From sequence record MW735835.1: a DNA stretch of 64,000 nucleotides, one strand, 5' to 3'. The notes below the pieces were generated by a model that saw nothing but the letters and a program-made list of their open reading frames with translations, had not been told where the DNA came from and ran no database searches. Source of the stretch: Pseudomonas phage pPa_SNUABM_DT01. A program made the position numbers and the translations under genes. Positions within the stretch are counted from its first letter, which is position 1, and the number at the start of each line of letters is the position of its first letter. Positions 13,818 to 27,748 of the stretch are shown here, piece by piece.

Positions 13818-13861
13818 AGAGGGAGCCCTAGGGCTCCCTCTAGCTTTCTTTTTTCTTTTTT
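13818..13861 (+). terminator. Intrinsic terminator: perfect palindrome AGAGGGAGCCCTAGGGCTCCCTCT followed by TAGCTTTCTTTTTTCTTTTTT
   Basis: A 24-bp palindrome plus T-tract, lying between the convergent ATP-grasp gene and the endolysin gene. Confidence 0.75.
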
Positions 13862-13863
13862 GC

Positions 13864-14634
13864 TTACGCGATGCGCAGGTTGCTCGGATGCAGACCTTCC
13901 ACCAACTTCTGCTCGACCTTGGCCGCAGCTTCCGCTTTGGTGATCAGACCGTCCTTGTTTGCATCCAGGCCCTTGTTCTGCATGTAGGCTTTGGACTTGG
14001 CGTTCGCTTCGCTGAACAGCACGTAGTCTTCAGGCTTACCGACAGCAACCGGGTAGAGGATGCGCATGTAGACGTCGGAAAGGGTCTGCAACTTGCCTGC
14101 GTAGGGCTTGAAGAAGTTGTAGACGTAGGTCAGCTGTTCTTCAGCGGTCATCTTCAGAAGCTTGGCCACGGTGGTGCCAGCATCCTTAGCGGCCGCATCG
14201 CCGAACTGGATGATGCCGTAGTACGGAGCACCCGCGCCGTTCTTGATGGTCGGGGAGAACGTACCGCCGGTCTCGAACGCCATGCAGGCCATCAACTGAT
14301 CCTGACCCTGCCAGCCCATCTTCAGCTTCTGGGCGATCTCGCCAGTCTTGAAGCAGAAGTCCAGGGACACCCGTTCAGACCACGCAGGAGCCTTGCAGTA
14401 AGCGAAAAGCAGGACACCAATACCATCGGGTGCATTCGACGGTTTGGACATCGTGGAGGCCTTCCTACGGGCGTTCAGGAACGCCCCGTGAGATGCCGGA
14501 CCCCACAGGCCGTCAATGACGCCGGTGTAGAGGCCCATGGCCTTCATGTTGCGCTGAAGTTCCTTCAGCTGTTCCTTAGTTGCTGCCATTGCCAAGGCCC
14601 TCGAGGAAAGTCTGCATGGCCGGATACATGTCAC
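13864..14634 (-). CDS. Endolysin: N-terminal peptidoglycan-binding domain plus C-terminal lysozyme-like/lytic transglycosylase domain
   Basis: The PG_binding_1-like segment is LKELQRNMKAMGLYTGVIDGLWGPASHGAF. The catalytic-like segment is ACMAFETGGTFSPTIKNGAGAPYYGIIQF. This architecture matches phiKZ gp144-type endolysins. The alternative start MAATKEQ at 14589 would reduce the overlap with the upstream gene. Confidence 0.7.
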   Translation of the reverse strand: MTCIRPCRLSSRALAMAATKEQLKELQRNMKAMGLYTGVIDGLWGPASHGAFLNARRKASTMSKPSNAPDGIGVLLFAYCKAPAWSERVSLDFCFKTGEIAQKLKMGWQGQDQLMACMAFETGGTFSPTIKNGAGAPYYGIIQFGDAAAKDAGTTVAKLLKMTAEEQLTYVYNFFKPYAGKLQTLSDVYMRILYPVAVGKPEDYVLFSEANAKSKAYMQNKGLDANKDGLITKAEAAAKVEQKLVEGLHPSNLRIA

Positions 14635-15226
14635 GCAGCTTGGTGAATGGGAGGTTGCTGATCTGGGCGGACTGCGGCTGTTCGATGCCAGTGACCTTCC
14701 AGTCGAAACGCAGGCCCTGCTGGGTCAGCGTCAACGGAGTCGAACTGGTTGCCTCGAACTTGGTGATGTGCACCGCGTTCTGGTAAGACCACTTGGTTTT
14801 CTCCAGCACACGCCACAGTGCTGCCGATGCCACCTGCTCAGCGGACTCCTGAGCGTAGGTCAGCAGGCTCATGGAGTCGGCCAGGACCTTGGCGTTCAGG
14901 AAGTCGTTGATGATGGCGTCTTCCACGTAGAGCATCTTCGGCGTGATGGTGCCCTTGGTGCGGAAGTACAGACGGGAGATCTGCGGACGGTTACGCGGGA
15001 TGTACGGTTGAGCGTTGCCACCTTCGTGAGGGGCATCGGCTTCTTCCGGCCACCACTCGATGGTGTAACCCACGATGGCGTATTGCAGATCGCTCAGGAA
15101 GTTGAAGACCGTGGCTTCCTTGATGCGGCAGTTGGCGCGCAGTTGCACACCGGAGTTGTCGATCAGGCGCAGGCAGCGGAAATGCCCACGATCTGCACCG
15201 GCATAGAGGGGTTGTTCTTCAGCCAC
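14576..15226 (-). CDS. Hypothetical protein (216 aa), last gene of the radical-SAM operon
   Basis: ORF co-directional with, and tightly abutting, the upstream oxygenase gene. Confidence 0.6.
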   Translation of the reverse strand: MAEEQPLYAGADRGHFRCLRLIDNSGVQLRANCRIKEATVFNFLSDLQYAIVGYTIEWWPEEADAPHEGGNAQPYIPRNRPQISRLYFRTKGTITPKMLYVEDAIINDFLNAKVLADSMSLLTYAQESAEQVASAALWRVLEKTKWSYQNAVHITKFEATSSTPLTLTQQGLRFDWKVTGIEQPQSAQISNLPFTKLRDMYPAMQTFLEGLGNGSN

Positions 15227-15235
15227 GATGGCCTC

Positions 15236-15826
15236 CTAAAGGTCTTTGACGACGTAGTACTCGTGCAGCAGACTCAGCCGCATCTCTTCCGTCACGTGCG
15301 TCACGCTGTGCTGGATATAGCTGGGGAAGATGTAGACATCACCAGCTTTGGGTGAGATGCGATAGTTGCCGAAATGGAACTGACGCATGGGTTTGGGATA
15401 CCCGCGACATGCGTTACCACGAGGGTCGAACATGTTCAAACCATTTGCCGAGTCCGACGGGTAGCAAATTGCCGACAGGACAGACCCGGGATGGTAATGC
15501 GGATACAGGCCTTCACCGCTTTCGATCCACTTGCCATTGGTCTCGACGTAGAACTCTTCCATGCTGGTGCCGAAGGCATGCTTGGAGAACTCTTTGACCG
15601 CCGGAGTGATCACGTCGTCACGGATCTCGATGATCAGTGGCATGACATCGCGCAGGACTTTCACCTGCGAGGCGTCTTCGCCCTGGGTCATGGTGAACAG
15701 CAGGAAGATCTCTTCTGCGTAGGCTTCCATGTCGAAGCGGTCAGCCACGTTGAAGTGTGCAATCTCGGTTTTCCACGGTTGGATGATTTCCACGTTACGC
15801 TCCATTAACAGAAATGATGCCCTCAT
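15236..15826 (-). CDS. Putative 2OG-Fe(II) oxygenase (PF13759-like family), 196 aa
   Basis: The metal-site signature is LYPHYHPGSVLSAICYP...GLNMFDPRG...AGDVYIFPSYIQHSV...MRLSLLHEY. This follows the H.H...H pattern and the RiSiSFN-like ending of the 2OG-FeII_Oxy_5 family, which is common in cyanophages. Confidence 0.6.
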   Translation of the reverse strand: MRASFLLMERNVEIIQPWKTEIAHFNVADRFDMEAYAEEIFLLFTMTQGEDASQVKVLRDVMPLIIEIRDDVITPAVKEFSKHAFGTSMEEFYVETNGKWIESGEGLYPHYHPGSVLSAICYPSDSANGLNMFDPRGNACRGYPKPMRQFHFGNYRISPKAGDVYIFPSYIQHSVTHVTEEMRLSLLHEYYVVKDL

Positions 15827-16226
15827 CCGTGCACTCGAGCAGACAGTACCGGACAGTCTGCGGAGCCCAACCCGAATTGATCCAATCAGGGATCTCCTTT
15901 AGACGCTCAATAATGGCGTCGTAGGTGGCTTGGTCTTGGTCGTAAGTGACGAAGTAAGGATCTTGACCCAGGAACAGGTCCTCATCACGCAAGGTCTCGT
16001 AAATGTCAATCCCGAAGAGTTCATTCAGCTTGTAGGCGTAAATGATCGCTACCGAGTAAGACTTGGCCGGGTAGTAAAGCGGGAAGGTCGCCTCTTTGAA
16101 GTAGTGCAGGGCGTTTTCGATCTTCTCCTCGCTCTCGACCATCTCCATCAACTCGAAGTCGTCGGTGTGGTCTCGGACAAGTTGGTTGTACAGGCGCTGG
16201 TTGTCTTTATACGGATGGGAACTCAT
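15795..16226 (-). CDS. Hypothetical protein (143 aa)
   Basis: The ORF overlaps both neighbours by 20-32 nt, indicating operon-style coupling. Confidence 0.55.
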   Translation of the reverse strand: MSSHPYKDNQRLYNQLVRDHTDDFELMEMVESEEKIENALHYFKEATFPLYYPAKSYSVAIIYAYKLNELFGIDIYETLRDEDLFLGQDPYFVTYDQDQATYDAIIERLKEIPDWINSGWAPQTVRYCLLECTDEGIISVNGA

Positions 16227-16659
16227 AGTTGCTCACAAACGAGATGCGCAACTCATCATGAGGTGACCGCTCAACATGATGCAACAGTCGAGCTGAGAAG
16301 ATGACCAAGCGGCCTTCCTTCGGGTGCACACGGTGATGGTTGCCTTGTTGATCGTGGATCACCAATGGTCCTTCGGCATCCAGTAGGTAGAGTACCGAAG
16401 TGAACACATGAGGCAGGTGATCATGAGGGGTGAGGCCTCCCGGACCGATGTGCACGTGGTTCGCACAGATGACCAAGTCCTGGAGTTGCAGATGCTGCTG
16501 CGTCAGGGGCAGGATTGTTTCGTCCGCCCACTTGATCAGGTCTTCATTGATCACGACATCTTTGTCGATCTCGCAGAAAGCCTGATCTACGACCCAGTCG
16601 GGGACAGGTATCCCTTCAACCTGGAAGAACAAAGGCTCGTTCATACCAGCACGTCCCAT
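16207..16659 (-). CDS. Second 2OG-Fe(II) oxygenase-like cupin protein (150 aa)
   Basis: The signature is LTPHDHLPHVFTSVLYLL...EGRLVIFSARLLHHV...ELRISFVSNY, the same PF13759-like pattern as the 15236 gene. Confidence 0.55.
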   Translation of the reverse strand: MGRAGMNEPLFFQVEGIPVPDWVVDQAFCEIDKDVVINEDLIKWADETILPLTQQHLQLQDLVICANHVHIGPGGLTPHDHLPHVFTSVLYLLDAEGPLVIHDQQGNHHRVHPKEGRLVIFSARLLHHVERSPHDELRISFVSNYEFPSV

Positions 16660-17666
16660 TTATTTTTCATGTTGACAAGGCAGGTATCGTGCTTGAGATG
16701 ATTCATGACCGCATGGATATCGCCACGCGCACAACGATCCAAATGCAAGCACTTCCCACACTCAGGCGAATGACTGCGCTGCACCAACTGCTCGAAGTAC
16801 ATCTCTTCTTCGAACTGCTCGAGGTTGATCCCAATCCATGGCTTCTTCAGTTCGAAGTCTGGCGCAAAGATGGGGAACTTCTCGATCAAGGTAGGTGTGT
16901 AGTACAACTTGCCTTGTCGGTAGGTAGCCTCCAGACTGTCCGTCTTGGGCTTGATCAGGAACCGGTTGTACTGGGTATCCTTGCAGGCCTGAATGACGTC
17001 ACAGAAGCGACTGAAGGCGTTCAGGAATGCTTGCCGGTTGACGAGGTCATCGAAGCCCTTACGCACATGCGGAAACACGTACTCGACCAAACGACGCATG
17101 CCGAATTCCAGCTCATGGATTTGCTGATTGGTCTCCACGGAGAAGTTCTCAATGGAGTCGCCAGTCATGTTCACCGTCAGGTACAGCAGCTCGAACTTCA
17201 CGTCCGGCAGGTGGTCAATCACGTACCGGACACGCTGACGGATCAAGTCCTGGTGCTTAGGGTTGTTGATACTCTTGAGCGGGAAGGGTGTCGCCAAGGT
17301 GAAAGACTTGCCTTTCATCAGGACGTTGATCTTCTCGCAGAGCACATCGAGCCCTGTGTCGTCTAACAAGGCCAAGGGCAATACCACGCTGTCAAAGCGT
17401 TCAGCGAGTCCCTGGATCAGAGCATGTTCCAGGATACCGACACTCGCCTTAGAGGCAATGACGTCCACCGGACCAATGGTGAACTCCCGCAAGCGGTAGC
17501 CTTCCTGCTTCATGTCATCGACCAGATCCAACAGATCCCGTCGATCTTTGTTGAACGGACCGGGATCGAAGTCCCGGTCTACCATGCAACCCACGCAGTG
17601 GTACTTACAGCCTTGAAGAATCTCAAGCGTCAGGTTGAACGCTCTGTTCGGAACCAGTGCTGACAT
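16641..17666 (-). CDS. Radical SAM enzyme with C-terminal SPASM/twitch Cys cluster (341 aa), paralog 1
   Basis: The N-terminal motif is GCKYHCVGC (Cx3Cx2C) at residues 20-28. The C-terminal cluster is ...SPECGKCLHLDRCARG... Confidence 0.8.
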   Translation of the reverse strand: MSALVPNRAFNLTLEILQGCKYHCVGCMVDRDFDPGPFNKDRRDLLDLVDDMKQEGYRLREFTIGPVDVIASKASVGILEHALIQGLAERFDSVVLPLALLDDTGLDVLCEKINVLMKGKSFTLATPFPLKSINNPKHQDLIRQRVRYVIDHLPDVKFELLYLTVNMTGDSIENFSVETNQQIHELEFGMRRLVEYVFPHVRKGFDDLVNRQAFLNAFSRFCDVIQACKDTQYNRFLIKPKTDSLEATYRQGKLYYTPTLIEKFPIFAPDFELKKPWIGINLEQFEEEMYFEQLVQRSHSPECGKCLHLDRCARGDIHAVMNHLKHDTCLVNMKNKWDVLV

Positions 17667-18672
17667 ATTGGAGCCCTACCAGGCAGTCTTTTATTTTCAT
17701 GCGTTCCATGATGTTGATGATGCCCTTCTCACTGCAACTGGACATGTAGACGCAGGACATGCATGGCGTATCTGCCAGATAGTCCAGGGCGCGTTCTAGG
17801 GCCTTCTGACGGGTGTTCAGAAGATTCTCCATAGTCCAGGGGCGGGGAATGACGAAGTCGTCTTCTAGGAAGGGACAATCGTCTTTGAGGAAGGGTACCC
17901 AGTACAGCTTGCTGTCGGTGTACAGCAAGTTCACCATAGTGCCGGTGTGGTAGCAGAGATCGGGGTTACGGCGGCGCTCATCCTCACCCGACAGACCCGA
18001 GTAGAACTGGGTGATGCGGTGAGACATACGCTTGATGTTCTGGGCGACCATCAGGTCCTTCACTGGCACACGCCCGTACGGGATGTTCAGGATGTCGTCC
18101 TTGTCCACCGGGAAGTCGACCTTGAAACCGTTCTTCATCATCTCGTCGAAGTCTTCGCCCACGGTGTCCGTGGTGCAGTTGACCACAAAGCCTGCTTCGT
18201 TGAGGTAGGCCTTTTTCAAGTGCTCCTTCACGAAGTCCAGCTTGGAGACGATCATCTTGCTGAACTTGTCCGACTTGAAGAACGATGGCGCAGCTGGCAT
18301 CAGGAACCGCACAGCCTTGCCGGGTATGGCCTCGTCGATCTCTTCGCACATGACCTTGTACAGGTCCATGTTCTTCTCAAGGAACGCCGCGTTGAAGGTG
18401 ACCTGATGAAACCCCTGAGCCATCTCACGGAACACCGGATGTTCCATGACCTCAGCCACGTTGTCCGCAGACATGTAGTCGGTCGGGCCGATCCCCATGT
18501 CGAACGCCACGTAGCCATTGGCCACCATTTCGTTGACCAAGGCAGCCAGTTTAGGAATGTCATCGACATCCCCTCCCAACTCACGGTCAATCATGCAGCC
18601 GGCGCAATGGTTCGCGCAACCCCGGAAGATGTCCAGGGTGATTTCCAGCCGTTGACGATGTTGTACGATCAT
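17623..18672 (-). CDS. Radical SAM/SPASM enzyme (349 aa), paralog 2
   Basis: The N-terminal motif is GCANHCAGC. The C-terminal cluster is PCMSCVYMSSCSEKG...DC. Closest in sequence to paralog 1. Confidence 0.8.
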   Translation of the reverse strand: MIVQHRQRLEITLDIFRGCANHCAGCMIDRELGGDVDDIPKLAALVNEMVANGYVAFDMGIGPTDYMSADNVAEVMEHPVFREMAQGFHQVTFNAAFLEKNMDLYKVMCEEIDEAIPGKAVRFLMPAAPSFFKSDKFSKMIVSKLDFVKEHLKKAYLNEAGFVVNCTTDTVGEDFDEMMKNGFKVDFPVDKDDILNIPYGRVPVKDLMVAQNIKRMSHRITQFYSGLSGEDERRRNPDLCYHTGTMVNLLYTDSKLYWVPFLKDDCPFLEDDFVIPRPWTMENLLNTRQKALERALDYLADTPCMSCVYMSSCSEKGIINIMERMKIKDCLVGLQYVSTGSEQSVQPDA

Positions 18673-19601
18673 TTCTTACGTCCAGCCCAATTGTCCAATA
18701 GACCCCGGAAGCCGTTACAGGAATTCTTCAGGGAGGTGACTTCACGCAAGTGTTCGGAAAGGCAGTTGCCAAAGTACGGGCAGGAGGAGCAGAAGGGATT
18801 GTCTTGGACCCGGTCGCGTTCAAAACCACACCAGTCCAGATACCCTTGTACTCCATCGACCGTCAGGAAATACTCACGGTCGTCCTTGTCGAACTCCAGT
18901 ACTGCAAAATCCCCAGAGGGCGTGATGTAGATGTGGTCGTCGCTGAATGCATTGCGCTTACCTTCTACCGCCTCTTTTACTTGGGTCTCGTTCTCGAAGT
19001 AGAACTTGCGTGCAGGATGCTTGATCACTGCCCATACAAACTCTTCGAATTCCTTGAACGACACCTCGTGCTCGTTAGCCTGGTTGGTGCTGTACGGCTT
19101 GATCTCACACCCCATGAGGTGCGGGAACATGTTCATCGTCTCGACGTAATCGTCAGGCGTTGTCTTATCGAGGAACGCACGACTGGCCAGCGTCAGCACG
19201 TTGAAGCGCTGACTCAGCAGGAACATGTTGTTCAACACCAGCTCATGTTTCTCACGGGCTTCGAAGTCGTACGACACCGAGATCATGAACGCCTTGTCAT
19301 GGACGATGTCTGGCACGTGAGACAGGTTGGTCACCAGCACGATGTCAGTGATCCCACGGGTCAACAGAACCTGCTTGACGCCAATGAGGTACTCTTGAGG
19401 CAGCACCAGCACCTCACCACCGTAGATGTCGACATGACCAATTTCGAAGTGCTCCATCAGAGCATCGAGCCGATCAGCAAAGACATCCACAGGCAACAGA
19501 GTGCGGTCGCTTAACTGTTGCTCGGTGAGGTAACAAAACGAGCACCGGAAGTTGCAGTAGTACCAGGGGTTGAAGCTGATGTTGAGGCTGGGTTTGGCCA
19601 T
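18669..19601 (-). CDS. Radical SAM/SPASM enzyme (310 aa), paralog 3
   Basis: The N-terminal motif is YCNFRCSFC. A GGE SAM-binding motif (YGGEVLVLP) is present. The C-terminal cluster is FCSSCPYFGNC...SC. The stop overlaps the next start (ATGA). Confidence 0.8.
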   Translation of the reverse strand: MAKPSLNISFNPWYYCNFRCSFCYLTEQQLSDRTLLPVDVFADRLDALMEHFEIGHVDIYGGEVLVLPQEYLIGVKQVLLTRGITDIVLVTNLSHVPDIVHDKAFMISVSYDFEAREKHELVLNNMFLLSQRFNVLTLASRAFLDKTTPDDYVETMNMFPHLMGCEIKPYSTNQANEHEVSFKEFEEFVWAVIKHPARKFYFENETQVKEAVEGKRNAFSDDHIYITPSGDFAVLEFDKDDREYFLTVDGVQGYLDWCGFERDRVQDNPFCSSCPYFGNCLSEHLREVTSLKNSCNGFRGLLDNWAGRKK

Positions 19602-19780
19602 GATTGCAACGATTCCAGGAAGCGGCGTTGGTAGGGATGCAGGGGCTTGGTGTGACCGAGCGCCATCTCGGCAAAATCAGCGAGGTTGTCTCGGCAACGC
19701 TTGACGACTACTTTCTTGAGGACTTCGGGGATCTCAAGCTTGAGTTCGTATCCCGGAGGGAAGAATGCCATTTGATCCAT
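19511..19780 (-). CDS. Small protein (89 aa by ORF) wedged between two rSAM genes; its 3' end overlaps the start of paralog 3 by about 90 nt
   Basis: The ATG lies 3 nt after the stop of the 19783 gene. The translation is MDQMAFFPPGYELKLEIPEVLKKVVVKRCRDNLADFAEMALGHTKPLHPYQRRFLESLQS... The C-terminal 30 codons have odd composition, so the true end is uncertain. Confidence 0.35.
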   Translation of the reverse strand: MDQMAFFPPGYELKLEIPEVLKKVVVKRCRDNLADFAEMALGHTKPLHPYQRRFLESLQSWPNPASTSASTPGTTATSGARFVTSPSNS

Positions 19781-19782
19781 GA

Positions 19783-20874
19783 TTAACCTTTCGCGATGAG
19801 TTGGACGGATTCGTCCTCGTAAGGGGTCGGTGTCAGATGGGCCGACATGCCATTGATCTCGATGATCTTGGCTGCCTGACTCTTCATCTTCCGACAGTGG
19901 TGTTCGGTCAAGCCAAACCGCTTGGTGTCCGAGATGGTCTTACGGCAACCATTGCAGATGGCAAACATCGGGCAGATGTAGCAGGATTCCTTCATCGACT
20001 GAAGGTGTTCCTGATCCCGTAACGGCAGGACCAGTTCCTTGCCAGACATCTCGGTCTCGAAGTCAATCGGGAACGCCATGTCGTCAGCAAAGGCACCGCA
20101 GGAGAAGTAATGACCACCGGGCTGCAAGGTACGGATACCTTCATCGCAGTTGCGAGCCAGAGGACACGTGGTGTGCTTGCCTTTAAGGCGCTTGGCCATC
20201 TGTTTGGTGTTGTACTCCCACTCCATCAGACCGGCTTCGTAGATCTGGATGTAGTGGCCGTAGATATCGGCTTGGGTGAAGAAGTTGTTCTCACTACCCA
20301 TCACCGTGCCGCGGTTGTTCACTTCAGGCCCAGAGGCCACGACATGGTTCACCTTGGCCTCGACACCCATCTCCTTGGCCAGCCTGACCGTATCCAAGAC
20401 AGTGTGCTCGTTGTCCTTGTCGATCACCGCAATGAAGTCCAAGCGGTAGCCGATGCGTTCAAAGAACAGGTCCGAGACCTTACGGAAATCCTCTTCAGTG
20501 AACGGCGTACCATCACCCTTCAGGCGTTTGTCGCCGTATTGGAACGACGTGGTGATGCCCAGACGTTCATGCTTGAACAACTCTTCCCACATCTCGGGCT
20601 TCTTGTAGAAAGCCCAGAGGTTAGAAGTGAAGCTGATGGATGCATCGCAGTTGTTGCGGTCCAGGATGGCGATCATGTCCCAGTAGTACTGGGGCGGCAT
20701 CATCAGAGGATCGCCACCGTTGACGATGATGGTGTTGGTATCGGGGAAGCGCTGAATGAAGCGTTCGATCTGATCCAGCTCAACGATGTCCTTGGGGTCC
20801 TCGGACAGGTAAGTACTGGAGCAGAACGTGCACTTGAAGTTACAGGCTACCGTTGGCTTGACGATGAGATCCAA
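19783..20874 (-). CDS. Radical SAM/SPASM enzyme (363 aa), paralog 4
   Basis: The N-terminal motif is ACNFKCTFC. The SAM-binding motif is NGGDPLMMP. The seven-Cys C-terminal SPASM region is TTCPLARNCDEG...FSCGAF...CYICPMFAICNGC. Confidence 0.8.
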   Translation of the reverse strand: MDLIVKPTVACNFKCTFCSSTYLSEDPKDIVELDQIERFIQRFPDTNTIIVNGGDPLMMPPQYYWDMIAILDRNNCDASISFTSNLWAFYKKPEMWEELFKHERLGITTSFQYGDKRLKGDGTPFTEEDFRKVSDLFFERIGYRLDFIAVIDKDNEHTVLDTVRLAKEMGVEAKVNHVVASGPEVNNRGTVMGSENNFFTQADIYGHYIQIYEAGLMEWEYNTKQMAKRLKGKHTTCPLARNCDEGIRTLQPGGHYFSCGAFADDMAFPIDFETEMSGKELVLPLRDQEHLQSMKESCYICPMFAICNGCRKTISDTKRFGLTEHHCRKMKSQAAKIIEINGMSAHLTPTPYEDESVQLIAKG

Positions 20875-21028
20875 TTGCCTGCTCCTGAGGTTGAGTGGTC
20901 CAAAGGTTGAAGTAATCGCGCTTGTCGATCTTGTCCGGGTTCTCGATAGTGAGTTGTTTCAGCTTCTCGGCTATTTCTTTTTCGGACATCTTGAGAAAAT
21001 TACGGGGAGGTACGGCCATGGCAGTCAC
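20840..21028 (-). CDS. Small ORF (62 aa; 49 aa from the internal start MSEKEIAEKLKQ...) between rSAM paralogs 5 and 4
   Basis: The translation is MTAMAVPPRNFLKMSEKEIAEKLKQLTIENPDKIDKRDYFNLWTTQPQEQAIGSHRQANGSL. The N-terminal half is helical and charged, and the C-terminal half is aromatic-rich (YFNLW). The 3' end overlaps the paralog-4 start by 35 nt. Confidence 0.3.
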   Translation of the reverse strand: MTAMAVPPRNFLKMSEKEIAEKLKQLTIENPDKIDKRDYFNLWTTQPQEQAIGSHRQANGSL

Positions 21029-21088
21029 CCTCTTTAAAGAAAAGATTCATAAGAAAGGTTCCGCATGTTTTAAGACACACGGCATAAA

Positions 21089-21107
21089 GGCCCGGTCTAG
21101 CCGGGCC
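21089..21107. terminator. Hairpin GGCCCGG-tctag-CCGGGCC inside the operon
   Basis: A 7-bp GC stem in the 88-bp gap between the 21117 gene and the 20840 ORF, preceded by GCATAAAG. Confidence 0.4.
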
Positions 21108-21116
21108 CCTATGTTG

Positions 21117-22124
21117 TCACGCAAGGATCACCTTGAACATGGCCTTGATCGAGCAGTCTTTCGACTTCTCGCCCAGGACCGTGTCATGCAGGAAACACCG
21201 TAGGCCACAGCGCTGATAGAACTCGCAACTGAAGCACCCGTAGTGTTCCACAAATGTCACTTCTGCGTTGTCCTTCGCGATCAGGCCTTCCTTCTCATCG
21301 AGGATTGCATCTTTGCCCGCTTCAGACCAACAGGTACTGATCACCCCATCCTTGTTGATGATCTTGGTGGAACGGCACGTGGTCTCGTTGACGACGTTAC
21401 GTTTCCAGTCCTTGATCGGATAGGAGTTCGGGTACTTGTCGTTCAGCTTGATGTACAGCTGACTGATCAGGTCTTCGTCGGGTTGATGATAGGCGTACAG
21501 CTGACTGGGGATGTAATGATCGAAGTACACGTCGTACTTGTCACAGAGCCAGACGAACTCGTCACCTTCCTTGCCATCGAGGAAGATTTGGATGTTCTGC
21601 TTGGTGATCACCACGTTGACCGTCTGAACGTACTCGCCCAGGACTTCGAGGTTCTGGAAGAACAGTTCACGCTGAGCACCATTGAAGCGCCCAGCAGGGT
21701 CGTAGGACGTGGCTAGCCAAACACGTGGGTCGATCAGCCGGAGCCGTTCGATCAGGTGCTTGACGCGGTCGGTGTTGTGGTAGACGAGATTGGTACCGAA
21801 GACCAACTTGACATCCTTGAAGTGTTCCAAGCACATCTTGCCGACTTGGTAGTACGCCTCGAAGACGTCATCACCAATCTCGTTCATGAACAGTTCACCG
21901 CCGGTGATGTTGACCACCATAGCCGTGTCTGGGTGCGTGGTTGCCAAGAGCTTGGCAGCCTTCTCGATCATCAGATCCCCGTCGAGACCCACTTTGGAAT
22001 CATGGTCCTGGTGGCAGAACGAGCAACGCATGTTGCACAGCTCGAACAGGATCAGGTGGGCTTCTTTCCACTTGCCCTTCTTGTCACGCAGGATGTCTAC
22101 AACAGGGATCAGGTCCATTACCAA
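21117..22124 (-). CDS. Radical SAM/SPASM enzyme (335 aa), paralog 5
   Basis: The N-terminal motif is LCNMRCSFC. The SAM-binding motif is TGGELFMN. The C-terminal cluster is ...TCWSEAG...GCFSCEFYQRCGLRC. Confidence 0.8.
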   Translation of the reverse strand: MVMDLIPVVDILRDKKGKWKEAHLILFELCNMRCSFCHQDHDSKVGLDGDLMIEKAAKLLATTHPDTAMVVNITGGELFMNEIGDDVFEAYYQVGKMCLEHFKDVKLVFGTNLVYHNTDRVKHLIERLRLIDPRVWLATSYDPAGRFNGAQRELFFQNLEVLGEYVQTVNVVITKQNIQIFLDGKEGDEFVWLCDKYDVYFDHYIPSQLYAYHQPDEDLISQLYIKLNDKYPNSYPIKDWKRNVVNETTCRSTKIINKDGVISTCWSEAGKDAILDEKEGLIAKDNAEVTFVEHYGCFSCEFYQRCGLRCFLHDTVLGEKSKDCSIKAMFKVILA

Positions 22125-23173
22125 CGCGCTCCGGTGAGAGCCGCCTTCAGGCCTGCCAGGTCAGTGGTCAGGATGTGGCGGATCAGGTTCTCGTCGTACT
22201 TGCCGGTGTCACGCATCGCCAGGGCAATACGCATCTCGCCAGCAAACATGTCGGTCACACGACGCAGGCAGTTCTCGGGTTCACGCATGTTGGCTTCGTC
22301 GTTCAGCAGCGAGAGGATCTGAGCAGCACGGCGGGACGAGGATTCGTCTTCGAGCTGGTGCATCAGTTCAACGGCCTCCATCAGCATGCCCTTGATCCAG
22401 ACGTCGGTCGGACGGAAGTCGTACAGGCCCGGACGGAGCAACTGTTGAGACGCCAGGTGCGGCAGATTGAGGCAACCTTCGAACACGGTCGGTGCGTTCA
22501 GCAAGGTGTCGACGTCGGCGCCGGCCAGTTCCCAGTTCTCGGGACGGGTCAGGTGACGAGCCCAGACGTCCATGGCATCGTGGGCGTTCGACAGTGCGAT
22601 ACGACGCAGGATGTTCTTGGTGGTCTTCGGGATCTTGCCGACACGGGCATCGGTACGCAGGCGAGCAATGTGCCACTCCAGCGAGAGGGCTTCCGGGTTA
22701 CGGAGTACCAGCTCGTTCATGGCCTCTTGCAGCGGTTCGTCCTTGTCGAACAGCGCCTGCACGACCTTGGTGTCGATCTTGATGCTGGACAGCACATCGA
22801 CGCGAGGTTCGCCCATGGCGACGATCAGGCTGTTGAAGGTGGCCTTCTTGCACACGAAGAACCAACGGAAGTTCTCGAAGTCGATCTTCGGGAACAACGC
22901 CTTGATCAACATGGCGTACAGGCGGGTATAGGTGTCGCTGTCGCAGTACACCATGACCTTGTCCTTGCTCTCGAGCGCTGCACCGAAGACCTCGGTGAAT
23001 TGCTCGGGTTCGAACTGGTCGAGGCTCTGGGCGAAACCCAGCTGCACACCGACTTCTTCGAACTCGCCCGGGCTGTGTTTCCAGCCGATCTGGGGCGAGA
23101 TGGTAATGACGTTCTTCGAGCGGTCAATCCGCAGTTCGGAGTCGACGTACGCCTGGTTAAACAGATGGTACAT
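22118..23173 (-). CDS. Hypothetical protein (351 aa) within the rSAM operon
   Basis: The ORF overlaps both neighbours (7 and 17 nt). No motif recognised. Confidence 0.65.
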   Translation of the reverse strand: MYHLFNQAYVDSELRIDRSKNVITISPQIGWKHSPGEFEEVGVQLGFAQSLDQFEPEQFTEVFGAALESKDKVMVYCDSDTYTRLYAMLIKALFPKIDFENFRWFFVCKKATFNSLIVAMGEPRVDVLSSIKIDTKVVQALFDKDEPLQEAMNELVLRNPEALSLEWHIARLRTDARVGKIPKTTKNILRRIALSNAHDAMDVWARHLTRPENWELAGADVDTLLNAPTVFEGCLNLPHLASQQLLRPGLYDFRPTDVWIKGMLMEAVELMHQLEDESSSRRAAQILSLLNDEANMREPENCLRRVTDMFAGEMRIALAMRDTGKYDENLIRHILTTDLAGLKAALTGARW

Positions 23174-24032
23174 GTTCGATACCTTTCAGGACATTGAGGT
23201 TGGACTGGAGTTCCGCACGTCCAGCTTGCTCGAGTCGAACCAGCTGCTCGGGTTCGCTCAGCGACAGCAGACCCAGGAAGTAGGGGTTGTGCTCGCTATC
23301 GAAGAAGGCGAACAGGTTCTTGCCGGCGAAGCAGTACTCGTTGAAGAACATCTTGTTCCAGCACCAGTCTTCTTCCGGGATGTCTTGCATCAGCACCGGG
23401 AACAACGGGTGTTGGATGAGCTTCACGAAGTTCAGGCCCAGCAGGCTTTCACCTTCGATCTCGGGGTAGTTGGCTACCTGATCCTTCAGCGTGGCGTAGC
23501 TGTGCAGGGCGTAGACCGGGACCATGCAGACGTTCTGCATCCAGGTCTCGAGGATGTCGCGATGCTCCTCGATGAACGGGACGGGATTGAACGGCAGCAG
23601 GTAAGGCTTGCCCGACGCAGCCAAAAGCAAGTTGATGGCCAGGTCTTCCATCTCAGGCAGATTCACCATGGAGGTGATGTAGAGATAGTCCTTCAGCATG
23701 TCCAACTTGGCTTCCAGCGAGGAGAACTTGATCTCGCACTTGATGTCCAGGTTGGTTAGGTAGGTGATCAGCACACTGCCTTTGTACTTGCTGTTGTCGT
23801 AGTCGACGATGAACTTCACGTTCTCCGAGAACTTACGCTTGAGCGTCAGCATCGGGATCGGAACGGTCACTTCGAGCACGACCAACTTGTCCCGCCACTC
23901 CTGCTCTTCTTTCAAGAGCAGTTTGTATTCCAGCTTCATGCCGAGAGACATGCTGTTCAGGCGCTCTCGGTCTTTTCTCGGATTGCCGGTCAACTTGTGC
24001 CGTTTGCGGAACTCGTCGAGTTGCTTCTCCAT
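23157..24032 (-). CDS. Hypothetical protein (291 aa) within the rSAM operon
   Basis: A long ORF with codon usage matching the rest of the operon. Confidence 0.65.
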   Translation of the reverse strand: MEKQLDEFRKRHKLTGNPRKDRERLNSMSLGMKLEYKLLLKEEQEWRDKLVVLEVTVPIPMLTLKRKFSENVKFIVDYDNSKYKGSVLITYLTNLDIKCEIKFSSLEAKLDMLKDYLYITSMVNLPEMEDLAINLLLAASGKPYLLPFNPVPFIEEHRDILETWMQNVCMVPVYALHSYATLKDQVANYPEIEGESLLGLNFVKLIQHPLFPVLMQDIPEEDWCWNKMFFNEYCFAGKNLFAFFDSEHNPYFLGLLSLSEPEQLVRLEQAGRAELQSNLNVLKGIEHVPSV

Positions 24033-24044
24033 GGTGAACTCCTA

Positions 24045-24581
24045 TTACCGGCGGCCGCGAGCAGAGTGACAGCTCGTGTGGCAGCTGGTGTGACAGATGG
24101 TATTTTGCAGGGTGAGGACCTGTGCACGGCAGGCATTCTGATAAGCGCTCAGGAGAGCGTTACATGCGTTGTTATAGACGTTGAGGTCCATGTTGGTGCC
24201 TTCGGTCAGAGCGCCGAGGTTAGCACCAGAGGCGAAATCCACTCCATAGACCGTATGACCAACAGCGGTCACATCGAAGATCAGTTCCTGACCAACAGCG
24301 TAATGGGTACGCCAGATCAGGACACGGCACGTCCGAATACCACTGAATAGGTTGGCCACGTAACGAAGAACCTGGGTGGCTTGCAGTGCTTGCGGCTCAC
24401 CGGCGGTGAATTGCTCGGTAGCGAACAGTGCGCCTTTGCCACCGGTAGTGCCAGCGAACCAGCCTGGCAGGCCATTCGGCGGTACGTTGTTGGTACCCCA
24501 GGCGATACCGGCGTTCATGTTGTTGCTGAGAATCGTGTTGGCGTTGGCAGCCAGTCGACTCCGACGAATCACTTCGGTCAT
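24045..24581 (-). CDS. Cys/His-repeat protein (178 aa) ending ...NTICHTSCHTSCHSARGRR
   Basis: The ATG overlaps the stop of the upstream rSAM gene at 24583. The C-terminal 40 residues (NNACNALLSAYQNACRAQVLTLQNTICHTSCHTSCHSARGRR) hold seven Cys, including a tandem CHTS repeat. Confidence 0.6.
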   Translation of the reverse strand: MTEVIRRSRLAANANTILSNNMNAGIAWGTNNVPPNGLPGWFAGTTGGKGALFATEQFTAGEPQALQATQVLRYVANLFSGIRTCRVLIWRTHYAVGQELIFDVTAVGHTVYGVDFASGANLGALTEGTNMDLNVYNNACNALLSAYQNACRAQVLTLQNTICHTSCHTSCHSARGRR

Positions 24582-24582
24582 A

Positions 24583-25623
24583 TCACACCTTCAGAATCAG
24601 ATTGGTCTGTTGCGTTCGACCGGAGAGGTAACGCAGGGTGTTCTTGAGACCCCCACAGCGACCCTTCTGCCAAGGCAGTCGGTGACAGTCGCCCCCACAC
24701 AGATCAAACACGTCGCACGTAATGCACGTATCGCCCCAAGTCAGTTCTTTGGCTTGTTGCTCCACCCGGCCATCCGAAATAAGGAAAGCGTCGACACCAT
24801 CCTCCAAGCGTGCATGGTGCAGCTTAGCGGCAGCGTTAGGGCAACCAGACAAAGAACCGTCCGAGTTGATGGTCACCAGGTTCTGCTCGCAGTTGCGGCA
24901 GTTGGTGTCCACCTTGACGACGTTCTTCTTGAGCTTTTCCTCGAGGATGTCGAGGGTCTTGATGCGCACACGTGGCTTGCGTTCTTTGTAGCGCAGGTAC
25001 AGCGCAAGGTACCAGTTGTCCTGGTCCTCATTGTTAGGGAAGATCTCGGGGTTATCGACAGCACTGCCATCGTTGGTCAACCGTTCCAAGGACGCTTCAT
25101 CCACTGCAAAGCTGTCCAACTGGTCCATCAGCCAATCGGGCGACATGGCGATGAGTTGCTTGCTGACCGACACCTTGACATTGATGCCCACGCCGTGGGA
25201 CTTCAGGGTCTCGAGGTTCTTCTTCCATAGCTGGAACTGCTTGTCGTTGCTCCAGCGAATCCAGTGGTCCCAGCTGGTCCCAATGAATGCACCGAAGTAA
25301 TCCTTGATGAAGGCGATGTGCTCATCCGTCAACTTGAAGGTCAGGTTGCTGGCGGCACACATCGACACGTTCGGCAGATCCACGAAGTGATCAGCGAAAC
25401 GCTTGAGCTTTTCCAACGGGACCAGGAACGGTTCCCCACCATGGAACTCCATGTGGTAGTGCGTGCTCTTGGGGTACTTGGACATGAAGTCCTTCACCCA
25501 ATCGCTGACCTGGTCCGGATCGAACGGGGTCTTATCCCCGGCCTTGCCGTTGGTGAAACAATGCTGACAGTTCAGATTGCAAGTGCCCGTGGTCTTGACA
25601 TAGATGGTTTTGTAGGCGTTCAC
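24583..25623 (-). CDS. Radical SAM/SPASM enzyme (346 aa), paralog 6
   Basis: The N-terminal motif is TCNLNCQHC. The SAM-binding motif is HGGEPFLVP. The C-terminal SPASM region is CRNCEQN...GCPNAA...CITCDVFDLCGGDC. Confidence 0.8.
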   Translation of the reverse strand: MNAYKTIYVKTTGTCNLNCQHCFTNGKAGDKTPFDPDQVSDWVKDFMSKYPKSTHYHMEFHGGEPFLVPLEKLKRFADHFVDLPNVSMCAASNLTFKLTDEHIAFIKDYFGAFIGTSWDHWIRWSNDKQFQLWKKNLETLKSHGVGINVKVSVSKQLIAMSPDWLMDQLDSFAVDEASLERLTNDGSAVDNPEIFPNNEDQDNWYLALYLRYKERKPRVRIKTLDILEEKLKKNVVKVDTNCRNCEQNLVTINSDGSLSGCPNAAAKLHHARLEDGVDAFLISDGRVEQQAKELTWGDTCITCDVFDLCGGDCHRLPWQKGRCGGLKNTLRYLSGRTQQTNLILKV

Positions 25624-26177
25624 AGCTTCGCTTCCAAAAAGAGTTCCAAGCCGAAACTAATCATCAGGGAACTGTCGACATTGATGGCCTGGTGAAGTTC
25701 ACCACGCGGAATATGGATGCTGTCCCCGGCAGTGAGTTCGATCTCGCCATCAGGGAACTTGAAAACTTTACGGCCTTCGACCATGTAGATGACGACGTCA
25801 TCTAGGTCTGTGTGCATCGGGAAGCTGACGCCCCCTTTCGGCGAAATGAAAAGATGAGCGCTCACTGGCCCCACGTGTCCGAAATGCGCAGCAAGCCGCG
25901 CACAGTTCTGGAACATGGTGGCATTGAGGCGCTCGATCCCTTCGATCTTGACCGGGCAATCGCTGTTCTCCAGGAAGTCAGACTGACTGTAGAGGTCGAA
26001 CGATTGCGCGTTCTTGATGTATTTCACCAGGCACTGCTCGTACAGATGCGGGCTTGACAGCAGAAGGTCCACATCGAGAAGCTCAGGAGTGATCCCCTCG
26101 AATTGAAAACCAAGACGTTCGAACATGTTCAAGCCCTCTCTGAAGTTGGTGTCTATAGGATTGCCTAGAAGGATCAA
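25620..26177 (-). CDS. Cupin-fold (JmjC/cupin_4-like) putative oxygenase (185 aa), first gene of the operon
   Basis: The His/Asp metal-site pattern is FPMHTDLDDVVIYMVEGRKVFKF...LTAGDSIHIPRGELHQA. The gene is coupled by overlap to the next rSAM gene. Confidence 0.55.
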   Translation of the reverse strand: MILLGNPIDTNFREGLNMFERLGFQFEGITPELLDVDLLLSSPHLYEQCLVKYIKNAQSFDLYSQSDFLENSDCPVKIEGIERLNATMFQNCARLAAHFGHVGPVSAHLFISPKGGVSFPMHTDLDDVVIYMVEGRKVFKFPDGEIELTAGDSIHIPRGELHQAINVDSSLMISFGLELFLEAKL

Positions 26178-27748
26178 TCCTGCCAGAGCGGCGGCCAGAC
26201 CTGCTGCCAGACACTGTTCACGGAGGCGTACAGACGGCCACCGGCGTTCAGCAGGGCAATGGTCGGATCGCTACCCAGGTTCGGGTCATTAGCCCCCGGA
26301 GCAGCGAAGCCGGTCCAGGTAGCCGGCCACAGTTGGCGCCAGGCACCAGAGATGTAACCTTGCAGGGTGCTACCCACTACACGAAGCGAGGTGTTCTGCG
26401 AGACGTTGATCTTCACATAACGCGAATCGTGGTCACCCGACTGCACGTGATCGTACATCCCGCCTGCGGTGAGCAGGTAGGCATCGGAGTTCAGCGTACG
26501 GGAACGAGTGATGGCGTTCGGCAGGTTGCCGAGGCCCACTTGTGCCTTGGTCGTTTGGTGCGGGTTGTTGAGGTTGGACACGTGGGAGTTGATCAGGTTA
26601 CCGGCGATTGCGTCGATGGCCTGCTTGGTCCGCAGAGGTGTCATGAACCGGTCATTGAGAACACCGGCTACCGCTTCGGCTTGGGTGGCGGTCTGGAAGT
26701 TGTCTACCAGGCCCAGGCCCACCTGTGCTTTCGTGGTGTTGTGCGGGTTGTTCTTATCGTTGACGTGGTTCTGGATGAGGGTACCGGCGTGGACCATGAT
26801 GGCCTGGTAAGTGCGCTGCGGCGTCATGAACGCGTTAGCAGCAGTACCGGCTTCGGCTTGAGCCTGGGTCGCTGTCGGGAAGTTGTCCACGCTACCGAGC
26901 CCGACTTGGGCCTTGGTGGTATTGTGGGGGTTGTTCTTGTCCGCGATGTGCGTGTCGACGGCTTCATTGGCCAGACGAGCAGCAAGCACTGCCACCAGAC
27001 TCGGGGTCATGTACTTGTTGTTCACGACACCGGCCAGCGCTTCTGCGTTGGTGGCGATACCGTAGTTCTCGACCGAACCCAACCCTACCTGCGCCTTGGT
27101 GGTGCGGTGTGGGTTGTTGAAGTCGTTCAGGTGCGCATCGACTTTGTCATCCAGAGCATCGATGTTCGCCTGGAGCTGGTCACGGATGAATTGCATCTGT
27201 TGACGCAGTTCGTCGTGAGACGCCTCATCACCCACCAGGATGGCATTGGTGATGCGTTCCAGCTGCCATACGACGTATTCCCAGCCATAGCTGTCGCCGA
27301 TGTCGTGGATGTGCGGAGCCGGCGGGTAAGCCGTCGGACGACCGATGATCGAACCCCACTTGATGGGGCGTTCATCGAGGTCCAGCTCAGCGATGAGGTC
27401 AGCCAGGGCACCCAGGTTCCAGGAGTACTCGCCACCGACGACTTGGTAGTCCATGCGGACTGCAACCGGGGCTTGTACCTTCAGAACGACGGCACACTGC
27501 ACGTCCTTGCCGCTGCGCAGAGAAGCTTGAGCGAATGGTTGAGCGAGCACGTAGTCGTCGACCGGAATCAACGGCTCACCGGTGTCGTCGTTGACCAGGA
27601 CCATGCTCTCAGTGTAGAACGGGCCAGCCTTGGGAACGAAGACCCGCTCGTTGTTGGCGGAGATCTCTCGGCGTTCCCCGACGATCTTGTTCGTCGGCGA
27701 GGTACCCTTGAGATCAAGAGGGTACTGAATGATCGGTGGTACTGGCAT
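26174..27748 (-). CDS. Tail fibre protein (524 aa) with four tandem ~47-aa repeats
   Basis: Repeats of the form NNPHxTTKAQVGLGxVxNFxTATxAxAxAGxxxxxFMTPxRTxQAI occur four times. The N-terminal ~100 aa are homologous to the N-terminus of the adjacent 797-aa fibre. Confidence 0.75.
   Translation of the reverse strand: MPVPPIIQYPLDLKGTSPTNKIVGERREISANNERVFVPKAGPFYTESMVLVNDDTGEPLIPVDDYVLAQPFAQASLRSGKDVQCAVVLKVQAPVAVRMDYQVVGGEYSWNLGALADLIAELDLDERPIKWGSIIGRPTAYPPAPHIHDIGDSYGWEYVVWQLERITNAILVGDEASHDELRQQMQFIRDQLQANIDALDDKVDAHLNDFNNPHRTTKAQVGLGSVENYGIATNAEALAGVVNNKYMTPSLVAVLAARLANEAVDTHIADKNNPHNTTKAQVGLGSVDNFPTATQAQAEAGTAANAFMTPQRTYQAIMVHAGTLIQNHVNDKNNPHNTTKAQVGLGLVDNFQTATQAEAVAGVLNDRFMTPLRTKQAIDAIAGNLINSHVSNLNNPHQTTKAQVGLGNLPNAITRSRTLNSDAYLLTAGGMYDHVQSGDHDSRYVKINVSQNTSLRVVGSTLQGYISGAWRQLWPATWTGFAAPGANDPNLGSDPTIALLNAGGRLYASVNSVWQQVWPPLWQD
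26520..27140 (-). repeat. Coding tandem repeat (~141-bp units) in the 524-aa fibre gene
   Basis: Four repeat units read from the translation. The same units appear as look-alike antisense ORFs in the six-frame track (26508-26810, 26883-27065). Confidence 0.7.

Follow-up and report, generated by a model that had tools for sequence, protein, structure and literature searches.

A radical-SAM gene cassette of jumbo phages and the invariant protein tail that it probably modifies

The gene array

The genome of the Pseudomonas jumbo phage pPa_SNUABM_DT01 (265,520 bp; DT01 below) contains a long array of genes for radical S-adenosylmethionine (radical-SAM, rSAM) proteins and iron oxygenases. We analysed it in a stretch of 64,000 nucleotides from sequence record MW735835.1 (the window, to whose numbering all positions refer). 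From 26177 down to 14576, the map of open reading frames (ORFs) gives 16 ORFs, all on the minus strand, each abutting or overlapping the next by a few bases, with start/stop overlaps of the 4-nt ATGA type or longer at most junctions (Table 1). An earlier note on this DNA had described a co-directional, tightly coupled array in a jumbo-phage genome, which is what the map shows; it had counted seventeen genes where we count 16 ORFs, one of which (20840-21028) has no homologue anywhere. Among the enzyme genes lies the gene for a protein we call CHS. From comparison with its relatives, CHS is very probably what the enzymes of the cassette modify, and its C-terminal tail is our main subject.

The genome paper of DT01 names 'six radical SAM genes gp057-060, 062, 066' (PMC8541153), which correspond exactly to our rSAM-F, E, D, C, B and A, and adds only a generic remark on DNA repair and host metabolism (PMC8541153). 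A paper on the related Aeromonas phage 332-Vera describes eight rSAM genes in a structural cluster as 'highly unusual' (PMC12390700). The array as such is therefore not the novelty for which it had been taken: its six genes had been named, and arrays of this kind are common in environmental phages. Our literature search, which was incomplete so that an earlier description is possible, found no paper on the CHS tail, the conserved cassette or a link to a virion protein. The array is thus widespread in environmental phages and uncharacterised; what is new is the CHS tail and its link to a virion protein. An already characterised module was what the earlier note had named as telling against its proposal, and we found the module to be common yet uncharacterised.

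Table 1. Genes and features of the array and its immediate neighbours in the window
Feature	Position	Strand	Evidence or remark
JmjC-type cupin, probable Fe(II)/2-oxoglutarate (2OG) protein hydroxylase; cassette gene 1	25620-26177	-	PF07883, PF08007
rSAM-A, full 8-Cys SPASM domain	24583-25623	-	Cys conservation, NCBIfam, phrog_1802 4e-53
CHS protein (PA10_00065), 178 aa, proposed substrate	24045-24581	-	Folded fast-evolving domain (7-163) and invariant tail
CHS C-terminal tail, residues 163-178, proposed modification site	24048-24095	-	Homologue conservation
u291, conserved accessory protein without catalytic signature, adjoins CHS gene	23157-24032	-	
u351, conserved accessory protein	22118-23173	-	After u291 in most loci
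rSAM-B, 7-Cys SPASM-type domain	21117-22124	-	Cys conservation, hhalign to A 7.6e-22
Doubtful 62-aa ORF	20840-21028	-	ORF map only
rSAM-C, 8-Cys SPASM-type domain	19783-20874	-	PF04055 53.5 bits
89-aa small ORF	19511-19780	-	Kept in closest relatives only
rSAM-D, single 4-Cys auxiliary motif	18669-19601	-	PF04055 32.2 bits
rSAM-E, divergent radical-SAM-like, E/F clade, 4-Cys auxiliary motif	17623-18672	-	Motif conservation, hhalign
rSAM-F, divergent partner of E, 4-Cys auxiliary motif	16641-17666	-	hhalign E-F 1.9e-66
Small 2OG-Fe(II) oxygenase	16207-16659	-	PF13759 28.0, PF13640 27.9 bits (just above cut-off); phrog_81
u143, conserved accessory protein	15795-16226	-	phrog_20737 7e-39; behind rSAM-D in most loci
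PF13759-family 2OG-Fe(II) oxygenase	15236-15826	-	PF13759 46.6 bits
216-aa ORF, cassette membership uncertain	14576-15226	-	Co-directional, adjacent
Two tail-fibre-like proteins, directly upstream context	26174-27748 and 27817-30210	-	phrog_2163, phrog_13857 (virion/tail) 1e-139
Lysin/hub-like protein, downstream end of array	13864-14634	-	phrog_4928, phrog_196 ('baseplate hub')

An invariant tail on a fast-diverging protein

CHS is 100% identical to PA10_00065 of pPa_SNUABM_DT01. Its last 16 residues follow the pattern C-H-x-S, C-H-x-S, C-H-x-S/A, R-G-R-R, stop, and the 64-kb window has no CHxxCH site elsewhere. In Ralstonia phage RSF1 and Agrobacterium phage Atu_ph07 the homologues end, like the DT01 protein, in such a tail (VCHSSCHSSCHGSRGRR and FCHSSCHASCHNSRSRR, respectively), and outside it the three proteins barely align. 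The Cys, His and Arg residues of the tail do not vary in any of 77 homologues collected by sequence similarity, while the CHS body is 27-56% identical between close relatives.

A set of loci found through the motif is circular as evidence for conservation of the tail, and we therefore also used sets derived by sequence similarity, as above, and from the neighbouring gene u291. The u291 protein does not contain the Cys/His motif, so that searching IMG/VR with a u291 alignment avoids the circularity. Of the 79 loci found in this way, 77 have an ORF ending in CHxxCHxxCHxxRxRR immediately upstream of u291; in the other two the tail ORF is incomplete, one being truncated and one a two-repeat variant. 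Among the distinct upstream ORFs, 65 of 68 carry the full consensus V-C-H-[AST]-S-C-H-[SG]-[SN]-C-H-[GS]-S-R-G-R-R.

The tail can also be followed at the level of DNA. A degenerate pattern for the tail and its stop codon carries approximately 47 bits, for which we estimate about 0.001 chance matches in IMG/VR, and it matches at least 120 viral contigs. In 173 distinct tails that match the pattern, synonymous codons for Cys, His and Arg are used freely, which argues for selection on the peptide and not on the DNA. Ser at -5 and Gly at -3 are conserved in approximately 89% of these tails even though the search pattern left both positions free. A profile search extends the family to at least 251 clusters at 90% identity and, at 50% identity, to at least 851, of which 572 have E <1e-10. 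Where a source name is given it reads 'hypothetical', and a Pfam domain is absent from all of them. Variants of the tail occur as well: a locus in one contig has a shortened two-repeat tail (CHSNCHINRSRR, L133; numbers with the prefix L are our locus numbers), and other length variants are found at L116:7816-8512 and L217:3907-4266, the latter in a contig of Dysosmobacter segnis BX15; one expanded tail has several motif copies.

CHS itself has no Pfam domain and no known fold relative, and by eye its sequence has no N-terminal hydrophobic segment resembling a signal. The AlphaFold2 (AF2) model is confident for the domain (pLDDT 90.7) and much less so for the tail (55-69), which points to an exposed, flexible tail. 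CHS was one of three candidate substrates proposed earlier, and the invariance of its tail, together with the virion data given below, makes it very probably the substrate. The other two fared poorly. The 62-aa ORF at 20840-21028 has no homologue at all, and the 89-aa ORF at 19511-19780, which lacks a Cys/His motif, is found by tblastn in two close relatives only (L123 and L061, 53% identity over 84-90 aa).

A conserved cassette

In the loci derived from u291 the gene order is nearly fixed: cupin, rSAM-A, CHS, u291, u351, rSAM-B, C, D and u143, with 2OG oxygenases interspersed in variable numbers. The cupin gene lies upstream of rSAM-A in nearly all loci. The nearest relatives of DT01 also have genes E and F, which otherwise occur in scattered lineages, and Atu_ph07 has a core set of cupin, A, CHS, u291, B, C and D. 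The proposal of a self-contained protein-modification cassette is borne out to the extent that the genes are conserved as a unit across phage loci. Megablast of the whole block against 50,697 phage records gave nothing, so relatives are seen at the protein level only; tblastn of two metagenomic CHS proteins against isolated phages also gave nothing, and the wider CHS family is so far uncultured.

A second architecture recurs in IMG/VR (loci including L003, L014, L020, L034, L062-L064, L096 and L112), in which two tandem small CHS paralogues of approximately 125-140 aa stand ahead of one F-type and two to five E-type rSAM genes. At times it shares a contig with an oppositely oriented set of cupin, A, C, D and B (L063, L109). 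In RSF1 (L001, 80329-81618) an HNH endonuclease gene and two dihydrofolate reductase (DHFR)-like genes lie between rSAM-B and rSAM-C, and RSF1-type phages have a GIY-YIG nuclease gene upstream of the cupin. These inserts are interruptions of the homing-endonuclease type in an otherwise conserved cassette.

We also scanned 185,579 species genomes with the DNA motif of the tail and found it in 27, about 16 of which are metagenome-assembled genomes (MAGs) of Bdellovibrionota (Bdellovibrio, Bacteriovoracaceae and Halobacteriovoraceae), an assignment that may include mis-binned phage contigs. The Bdellovibrionota contigs (in the set L202-L228, for example L213, which is CAVRCF010000001.1, L219 and L221) include some of 1.29 Mb (L213), 382 kb and 299 kb. 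Genes for CHS, u291, u351 and rSAM proteins are present in these loci, rearranged and bidirectional. The module may belong to these predatory bacteria in a version of their own, or it may reside in prophages that they carry.

The radical-SAM proteins

All six proteins have an N-terminal CX3CX2C motif. The earlier note had read out these six strings correctly and had placed them within the first 25 residues; the motif begins at residue 11-20 in five proteins and at residue 30 in rSAM-B. In homologues collected from metagenomic phage contigs (28-67 per family and 23 for the E/F set), the three cysteines are 97-100% conserved in every family.

The C-terminal cysteines are likewise conserved in all six proteins, and they divide them into two groups. 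In rSAM-A (67 sequences), the CX3CX2C at residues 15-22 and each of C242, C245, C261, C300, C303, C309, C313 and C323 are at least 97% conserved, and the spacing is that of a canonical SPASM domain (C245-x10-G-x4-C261...C300-x2-C303-x5-C309-x3-C313...C323). In rSAM-B (50 sequences), the motif at residues 30-37 is 100% conserved and seven C-terminal cysteines are 94-98% conserved; in rSAM-C (35 sequences) all 11 cysteines, eight of them C-terminal, are 100% conserved, and the protein is 54-58% identical to those of RSF1, RSL2, FLC6 and Atu_ph07. For rSAM-D, the CX3CX2C is 100% and C271, C274, C280 and C295 are 96% conserved. In the 23 E/F sequences, C19, C23, C26, C304, C307, C313 and C330 of rSAM-E are invariant, and conservation of the rSAM-F cysteines is 97-100%. 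Proteins D, E and F retain only CX2CX5C...C, four cysteines that would suffice for at most one auxiliary cluster and make neither a canonical SPASM nor a canonical Twitch pattern. Full SPASM patterns are thus confined to A-C, and none of the six reaches the cut-off of the SPASM model TIGR04085 (27 bits; 25.7 for rSAM-A, 17.2 for rSAM-C and no match for B, D, E and F).

Membership of the superfamily is clearer for some of these proteins than for others. Two exceed the PF04055 cut-off of 29.5 bits (rSAM-C and rSAM-D, Table 1), three fall below it (rSAM-A 27.2, rSAM-B 25.0, rSAM-F 20.9) and rSAM-E has no match, while 9 of the 23 E/F family members match weakly. Profile comparison with hhalign joins A-D to one another at E-values from 1e-9 to 1e-22, E to F at 1.9e-66, and E to A, over the full length, at 1e-4; rSAM-F does not reach A-D by this method, and a profile of the E/F set had no significant match among PDB sequences. 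Assignment of E and F therefore rests on the motifs, the weak Pfam matches and hhalign. By eye, rSAM-A has GGEP behind the cluster motif at the usual spacing, and E and F have GPTD there. E and F form a separate, divergent clade. On sequence grounds all six are very likely radical-SAM proteins, but 'six paralogous SPASM maturases' is too strong a label; paralogy is well supported within A-D, and E and F, close to each other, are tied to the rest by the marginal E-A match.

As for function, the best NCBIfam matches of rSAM-A and rSAM-C are led by peptide and protein maturases, all far below equivalog cut-offs, in line with the anSME-like minimal rSAM/SPASM architecture proposed earlier. They include anSME, YhhB and PapB (1e-13, 3e-13 and 2e-12 for rSAM-A) as well as FxsB, AmcB and DynA. 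The anSME model TIGR03942 gives 50.9 bits for rSAM-A and 38 bits for rSAM-C against an equivalog cut-off of 349; triceptide maturase models of the YhhB, FxsB, GrrM and AmcB type give 42-50 bits against cut-offs of 310-445; and the HxsB (TIGR03978) and HxsC (TIGR03977) models give at best 26.2, 25.5 and 21 bits against cut-offs of 370 and 268. With scores so far below the cut-offs, we set aside a specific kinship to anSME or to HxsB/HxsC. Models for QueE, MoaA and NrdG score far below the peptide-maturase models.

Iron oxygenases and accessory proteins

The two PF13759 oxygenases and the JmjC/cupin protein recognised earlier all pass their Pfam cut-offs. The cupin scores 37.1 bits with PF07883 (cut-off 27.2) and 33 bits with PF08007 (cut-off 22), its triad H122-x-D124...H162 is invariant in 59 homologues, and among solved sequences the histidyl hydroxylases MINA53 and NO66 come closest, a weak match at E 4e-4. 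The PF13759 cut-off is 27 bits, which both oxygenases exceed (Table 1). In the one at 15236-15826, H110-x-H112...H173 and R183 are conserved in 22 sequences, the second ligand being His and not Asp.

The u291 protein has a confident AF2 model (pLDDT 92.2), no known fold relative and no conserved catalytic residues; u351 has no Pfam, NCBIfam or PHROG match. Together with the CHS body these two diverge fastest between close relatives (27-59% identity, with u351 at 64-70% in two relatives), and rSAM-A, C and E are about 60-80% identical between the same relatives. Because u291 and u351 diverge as fast as the CHS body, the sequences suggest that both track the variable CHS domain.

Fibre neighbourhood and virion evidence

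Tail-fibre genes immediately precede the cassette in DT01 and in the majority of unrelated contigs. In most of the latter, the cupin gene is preceded, in order, by genes for a giant structural protein (>1,400 aa), an ORF of approximately 75 aa that on reading looks like a coiled coil, and a fibre protein of approximately 450 aa. In several contigs (L134, L161, L193, L176, L153) this fibre protein ends in the module RYADLAEKY..D.EY..GTV...GG..E...GV.S..PA..MN...G..ALKGRVPVKV.G...KGD, which we take to resemble an autochaperone of the Peptidase_G2 type. The two fibre-like proteins upstream of the DT01 array are paralogous, with 3-5 copies of a unit of approximately 60 aa containing NNPHxTTKAQVGLGxVxN, and the same pair is found in the close relatives L005, L061 and L123-L129.

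A different cassette lies beside fibre genes in Ralstonia phage RP31 (L229, AP017925: 79172-86742), where an rSAM block (ORF072, 073 and 075) and the MgoB-like ORF076 stand behind two YomR-like fibre genes. A protein of 125 aa rich in His and Tyr, ORF070 (QHTHNYYDYYW...SHTHYSPDGSY), precedes the block and has no CHS tail. We rejected RP31 and RP12 as carriers of the cassette, their rSAM genes being of a different kind and without the CHS tail; rSAM cassettes beside fibre genes may nevertheless be a broader theme.

An independent check on the role of CHS comes from the published virion proteome of Atu_ph07, a single phage purified with polyethylene glycol (PEG) and distantly related to DT01. 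Its protein gp170 (31.89 kDa) was detected there with 8 unique peptides and 35% coverage (PMC6102473, Table S5), and gp170 is the CHS homologue, the numbering agreeing with gp176 and gp177. The flanking cupin, rSAM and u291 proteins (gp165-169, gp171 and gp172) were undetected in the virions (PMC6102473), which indicates that the protein with the tail enters the particle and the enzymes stay out. The second structural gene cluster of Atu_ph07 begins exactly at CDS 170 (PMC6102473).

The position of gp170 on the gel is also unusual. It occurred throughout gel fragments 1-9, with its highest abundance in fragment 1 (PMC6102473), which holds proteins of 75-139 kDa, whereas other proteins of approximately 30 kDa peak in fragments 7-8 (PMC6102473). 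Migration so far above the monomer mass after boiling in sodium dodecyl sulphate (SDS) fits a covalent or extremely stable complex, without being proof of one.

Interpretation

We consider it reasonably probable that the cassette is a pathway devoted to modifying or cross-linking the tail of a virion protein, which itself is probably associated with the fibres. The observations in favour are the invariance of the tail against a fast-diverging body, the unbiased synteny of the tail ORF with u291 and the fixed gene order; by analogy, maturation of folded proteins by radical-SAM enzymes has precedents in anSME, QhpD and HxsB/C-HxsA (PMC13128918). The earlier suggestion had been a pathway either RiPP-like (for ribosomally synthesised and post-translationally modified peptides) or acting on virion proteins, and since gp170 of Atu_ph07 is a virion protein the second of these fits better.

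Gene content, conserved motifs, synteny, invariance of the tail and packaging of gp170 in Atu_ph07 virions without its enzymes are observed. Tail as substrate, type of chemistry, accessory roles and location at the fibres are all points that we infer, in the following form. Late in infection, the core rSAM/SPASM enzymes A-D, and here also E and F, would abstract hydrogen from residues of the tail and so install cross-links or oxidations on the exposed CHxS repeats. By analogy, candidates for the product are Cys thioethers, three-residue cyclophanes across His-X-Ser and the conversion of Cys to formylglycine. Thioethers have precedents in sactipeptides, ranthipeptides and QhpD, and formylglycine in anSME. 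A further candidate by analogy is a +8 Da change like that of HxsA (PMC13128918). The JmjC-type cupin and the PF13759 oxygenases could add hydroxylations, with His or Arg as likely targets, and u291, u351 and u143, which have no catalytic residues, might present the substrate or assist assembly. Matured CHS would then become part of the virion, probably on or close to the tail fibres, where the modified tail would serve as a covalent or very stable anchor. Any particular one of these chemistries, chosen by analogy, is much less likely than the general model.

A narrower version we put forward tentatively, and as doubtful in its full detail. In it, the cassette would make a novel enzymatic cross-link, or a metal or cofactor site derived from the protein, at the C-terminus of a hypervariable fibre-tip or adhesin protein, using Cys, His and Ser of the CHxS repeats through rSAM chemistry and hydroxylation and locking the protein covalently onto the virion; the Bdellovibrionota would share the machinery.

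Several points weigh against a pathway that modifies the tail. Since the virions of Atu_ph07 were purified with PEG, some contamination is possible, and the presence of gp170 in band 1 could reflect an SDS-stable oligomer and not a covalent link. No member of the family has an observed modification, the Atu_ph07 data report no C-terminal peptide of gp170, and the annotations of RSF1 and RSL2 do not flag the CHS homologue as a virion protein. A tail rich in Cys and His could just bind metal unmodified. No known system requires as many as four to six rSAM enzymes for 16 residues, and the fibres, for example, could be the target of some of them. Curated models fail to recognise E as a radical-SAM protein and recognise F only weakly. 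For CHS and u291, which have no known fold relatives, the proposed roles are drawn from context.

We also weighed other explanations of the same data. The CHS gene could encode a RiPP-like precursor, its globular part acting as a large leader and its tail as the core that is cut off and released as a metallophore, toxin or signal. The layout does resemble a precursor beside its maturases, the best enzyme matches are RiPP maturases, and some contigs have two tandem paralogues of approximately 127 aa followed by E/F-type rSAM arrays, as is often seen in RiPP clusters. However, Pfam, NCBIfam and PHROG found no protease or peptidase, transporter or RiPP recognition element (RRE) family among the cassette proteins, conservation is reversed in that the core is invariant and the leader hypervariable, and detection of gp170 in virions at 35% coverage indicates that the body is kept and not discarded. 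We regard this explanation as improbable.

Another explanation is that the tail is an unmodified metal-binding or docking motif, and that the enzymes target something else encoded nearby, for example the fibres or a different virion protein. In its favour, C-terminal tails rich in Cys and His typically bind metal, 16 residues seem to call for fewer enzymes, and the cassette usually adjoins fibre genes. Against it, the CHS gene lies between rSAM-A and the other enzymes in more than 95% of loci, and it stays with them in the rearranged Bdellovibrionota loci, where there is no fibre gene within the 8 kb examined. The fibre proteins upstream, moreover, are altogether different from one lineage to another, unlike the tail and the enzymes. 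We give this explanation little credence.

It is very improbable that CHS is a helper of the enzymes, either an Fe-S or electron carrier or a scaffold that delivers clusters to the [4Fe-4S] sites. Three Cys and three His could ligate iron or Fe-S clusters, and six enzymes with up to three clusters each would presumably need cluster supply and reduction; but a tail that is disordered and ends in RGRR does not resemble a ferredoxin, Rieske or scaffold site of any known kind, and neither presence in virions from which all the enzymes are absent nor a hypervariable body is what one would expect of a helper. The role in nucleic-acid or host metabolism suggested in the DT01 genome paper (PMC8541153) is scarcely credible: phage rSAM genes for QueE and for thymidine-hypermodification enzymes exist (PMC8989533) and DHFR genes are inserted in the RSF1-type block, but the block sits in a structural, late gene cluster, the QueE, MoaA and NrdG models score as low as described above, and a DNA-modification role was set aside because the conserved core has no nucleotide-metabolism gene.

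If modification of the tail is confirmed, many environmental phages, including jumbo phages of Pseudomonas, Ralstonia, Burkholderia, Agrobacterium and Sinorhizobium, would devote four to eight Fe-S enzymes to a stretch of 16 residues in a single structural protein. Bacterial peptides and a few enzymes are known to undergo radical-SAM maturation, and our literature search found no report of it for virus particles. The family would be a large new one of enzymes and substrates (at least 851 substrate clusters) built on a short fixed motif, and the Cys-His-x-Ser repeats would be a site of new chemistry. The modification may be how some fibre-associated proteins are held in place or made stable, with a bearing on host range, phage engineering and protein stapling. 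It would also account for the 'highly unusual' rSAM clusters of the jumbo-phage papers and tie in the related Bdellovibrionota module. Should the cross-link form prove correct, it would be a new class of catalysed covalent virion cross-link, in role like the HK97 chainmail and made by radical enzymes.

Other features of the window

The 216-aa ORF at 14576-15226 has no family match and no homologue among the loci examined. The 89-aa ORF at 19511-19780 shares 91 nt with the beginning of rSAM-D as listed; either the two genes truly overlap or rSAM-D starts elsewhere. At the downstream end of the array, the protein of 13864-14634 resembles C-terminal parts of large tail proteins and from its sequence is a probable virion-associated or lytic muramidase; its listed GTG start overlaps the preceding ORF by 59 nt and is probably too far upstream.

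Between the array and the convergent gene at 13072-13809 (+ strand), which encodes an R2K-clade ATP-grasp protein (PF18299, 108 bits) outside the conserved cassette, lies a perfect 10-bp GC-rich hairpin with T-runs (13818-13841, AGAGGGAGCCCTAGGGCTCCCTCT), likely a bidirectional terminator that closes the late operon. A scan of the array for promoters and terminators gave sites no commoner than in shuffled controls, this hairpin being the sole clear feature. The sole sizeable intergenic gap, 88 nt at 21029-21116 between rSAM-B and rSAM-C, contains a GC-rich hairpin (21089-21107, GGCCCGGTCTAGCCGGGCC) and may be an internal processing or attenuation site. Antisense ORFs of 195-418 aa on the plus strand (14768-15355, 17947-18930, 21941-23197 and 24376-25230) have no family match; long ORFs opposite the cassette are the usual by-product of coding sequence with 55% G+C.

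Comparison with known systems

In architecture, the enzymes most resemble anSME and the QhpD-QhpC system. They are proteins of approximately 340-370 aa without an RRE, and rSAM-A combines CX3CX2C with CX9-15GX4C...CX2CX5CX3C...C, the eight cysteines of the latter included. anSME is both the top NCBIfam match of rSAM-A and the top PDB sequence match of rSAM-C, and anSME and QhpD act, as we propose here, on a short Cys/Ser motif in a folded protein and not on a free peptide. The motif differs, however: anSME recognises C/S-x-P/A-x-R, whereas the cassette has three CHxS repeats and RGRR; the final repeat, C-H-[GS]-S-R, fits C-x-x-x-R but has neither Pro nor Ala at position 3. The cassette also has four to six distinct enzymes together with oxygenases, and a viral structural target.

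Triceptide synthases link an aromatic residue, including His through its C2, to the beta-carbon two residues on, a geometry offered three times by the H-x-S of the tail, and synthases that act on His are known (HaaB and HtkB; PMC11499958). YhhB, FxsB and AmcB are among the best matches of rSAM-A, with no equivalog threshold reached. Triceptide precursors, in contrast, are short peptides with conserved leaders, and a cyclophane in CHS is a candidate only. The cupin shares the HxD...H triad of the JmjC oxygenases MINA53, NO66 and YcfD, and its nearest relatives hydroxylate His in proteins, but at 185 aa it has neither their dimerisation domain nor their winged-helix domain.

By analogy of function, the closest system is the bacterial HXS defence system, although the proteins are not orthologous and the setting is the opposite. 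In this anti-phage system, the His-Xaa-Ser repeats of HxsA are matured by the rSAM enzymes HxsB and HxsC with HxsD (PMC13128918), and a modification of +8 Da on the SHRSS repeat of HxsA maps to the His and Ser of one repeat (PMC13128918). In both cases, several rSAM enzymes and a small non-catalytic partner would mature a folded protein with a basic, repeated H-x-S element. The CHS repeats differ in having a period of 4, an invariant Cys and a position at the extreme C-terminus; the HXS effector has a peptidoglycan-binding domain and is exported, whereas CHS has no Pfam domain; and HXS is encoded in a bacterial defence island, while the cassette described here is encoded by phages.

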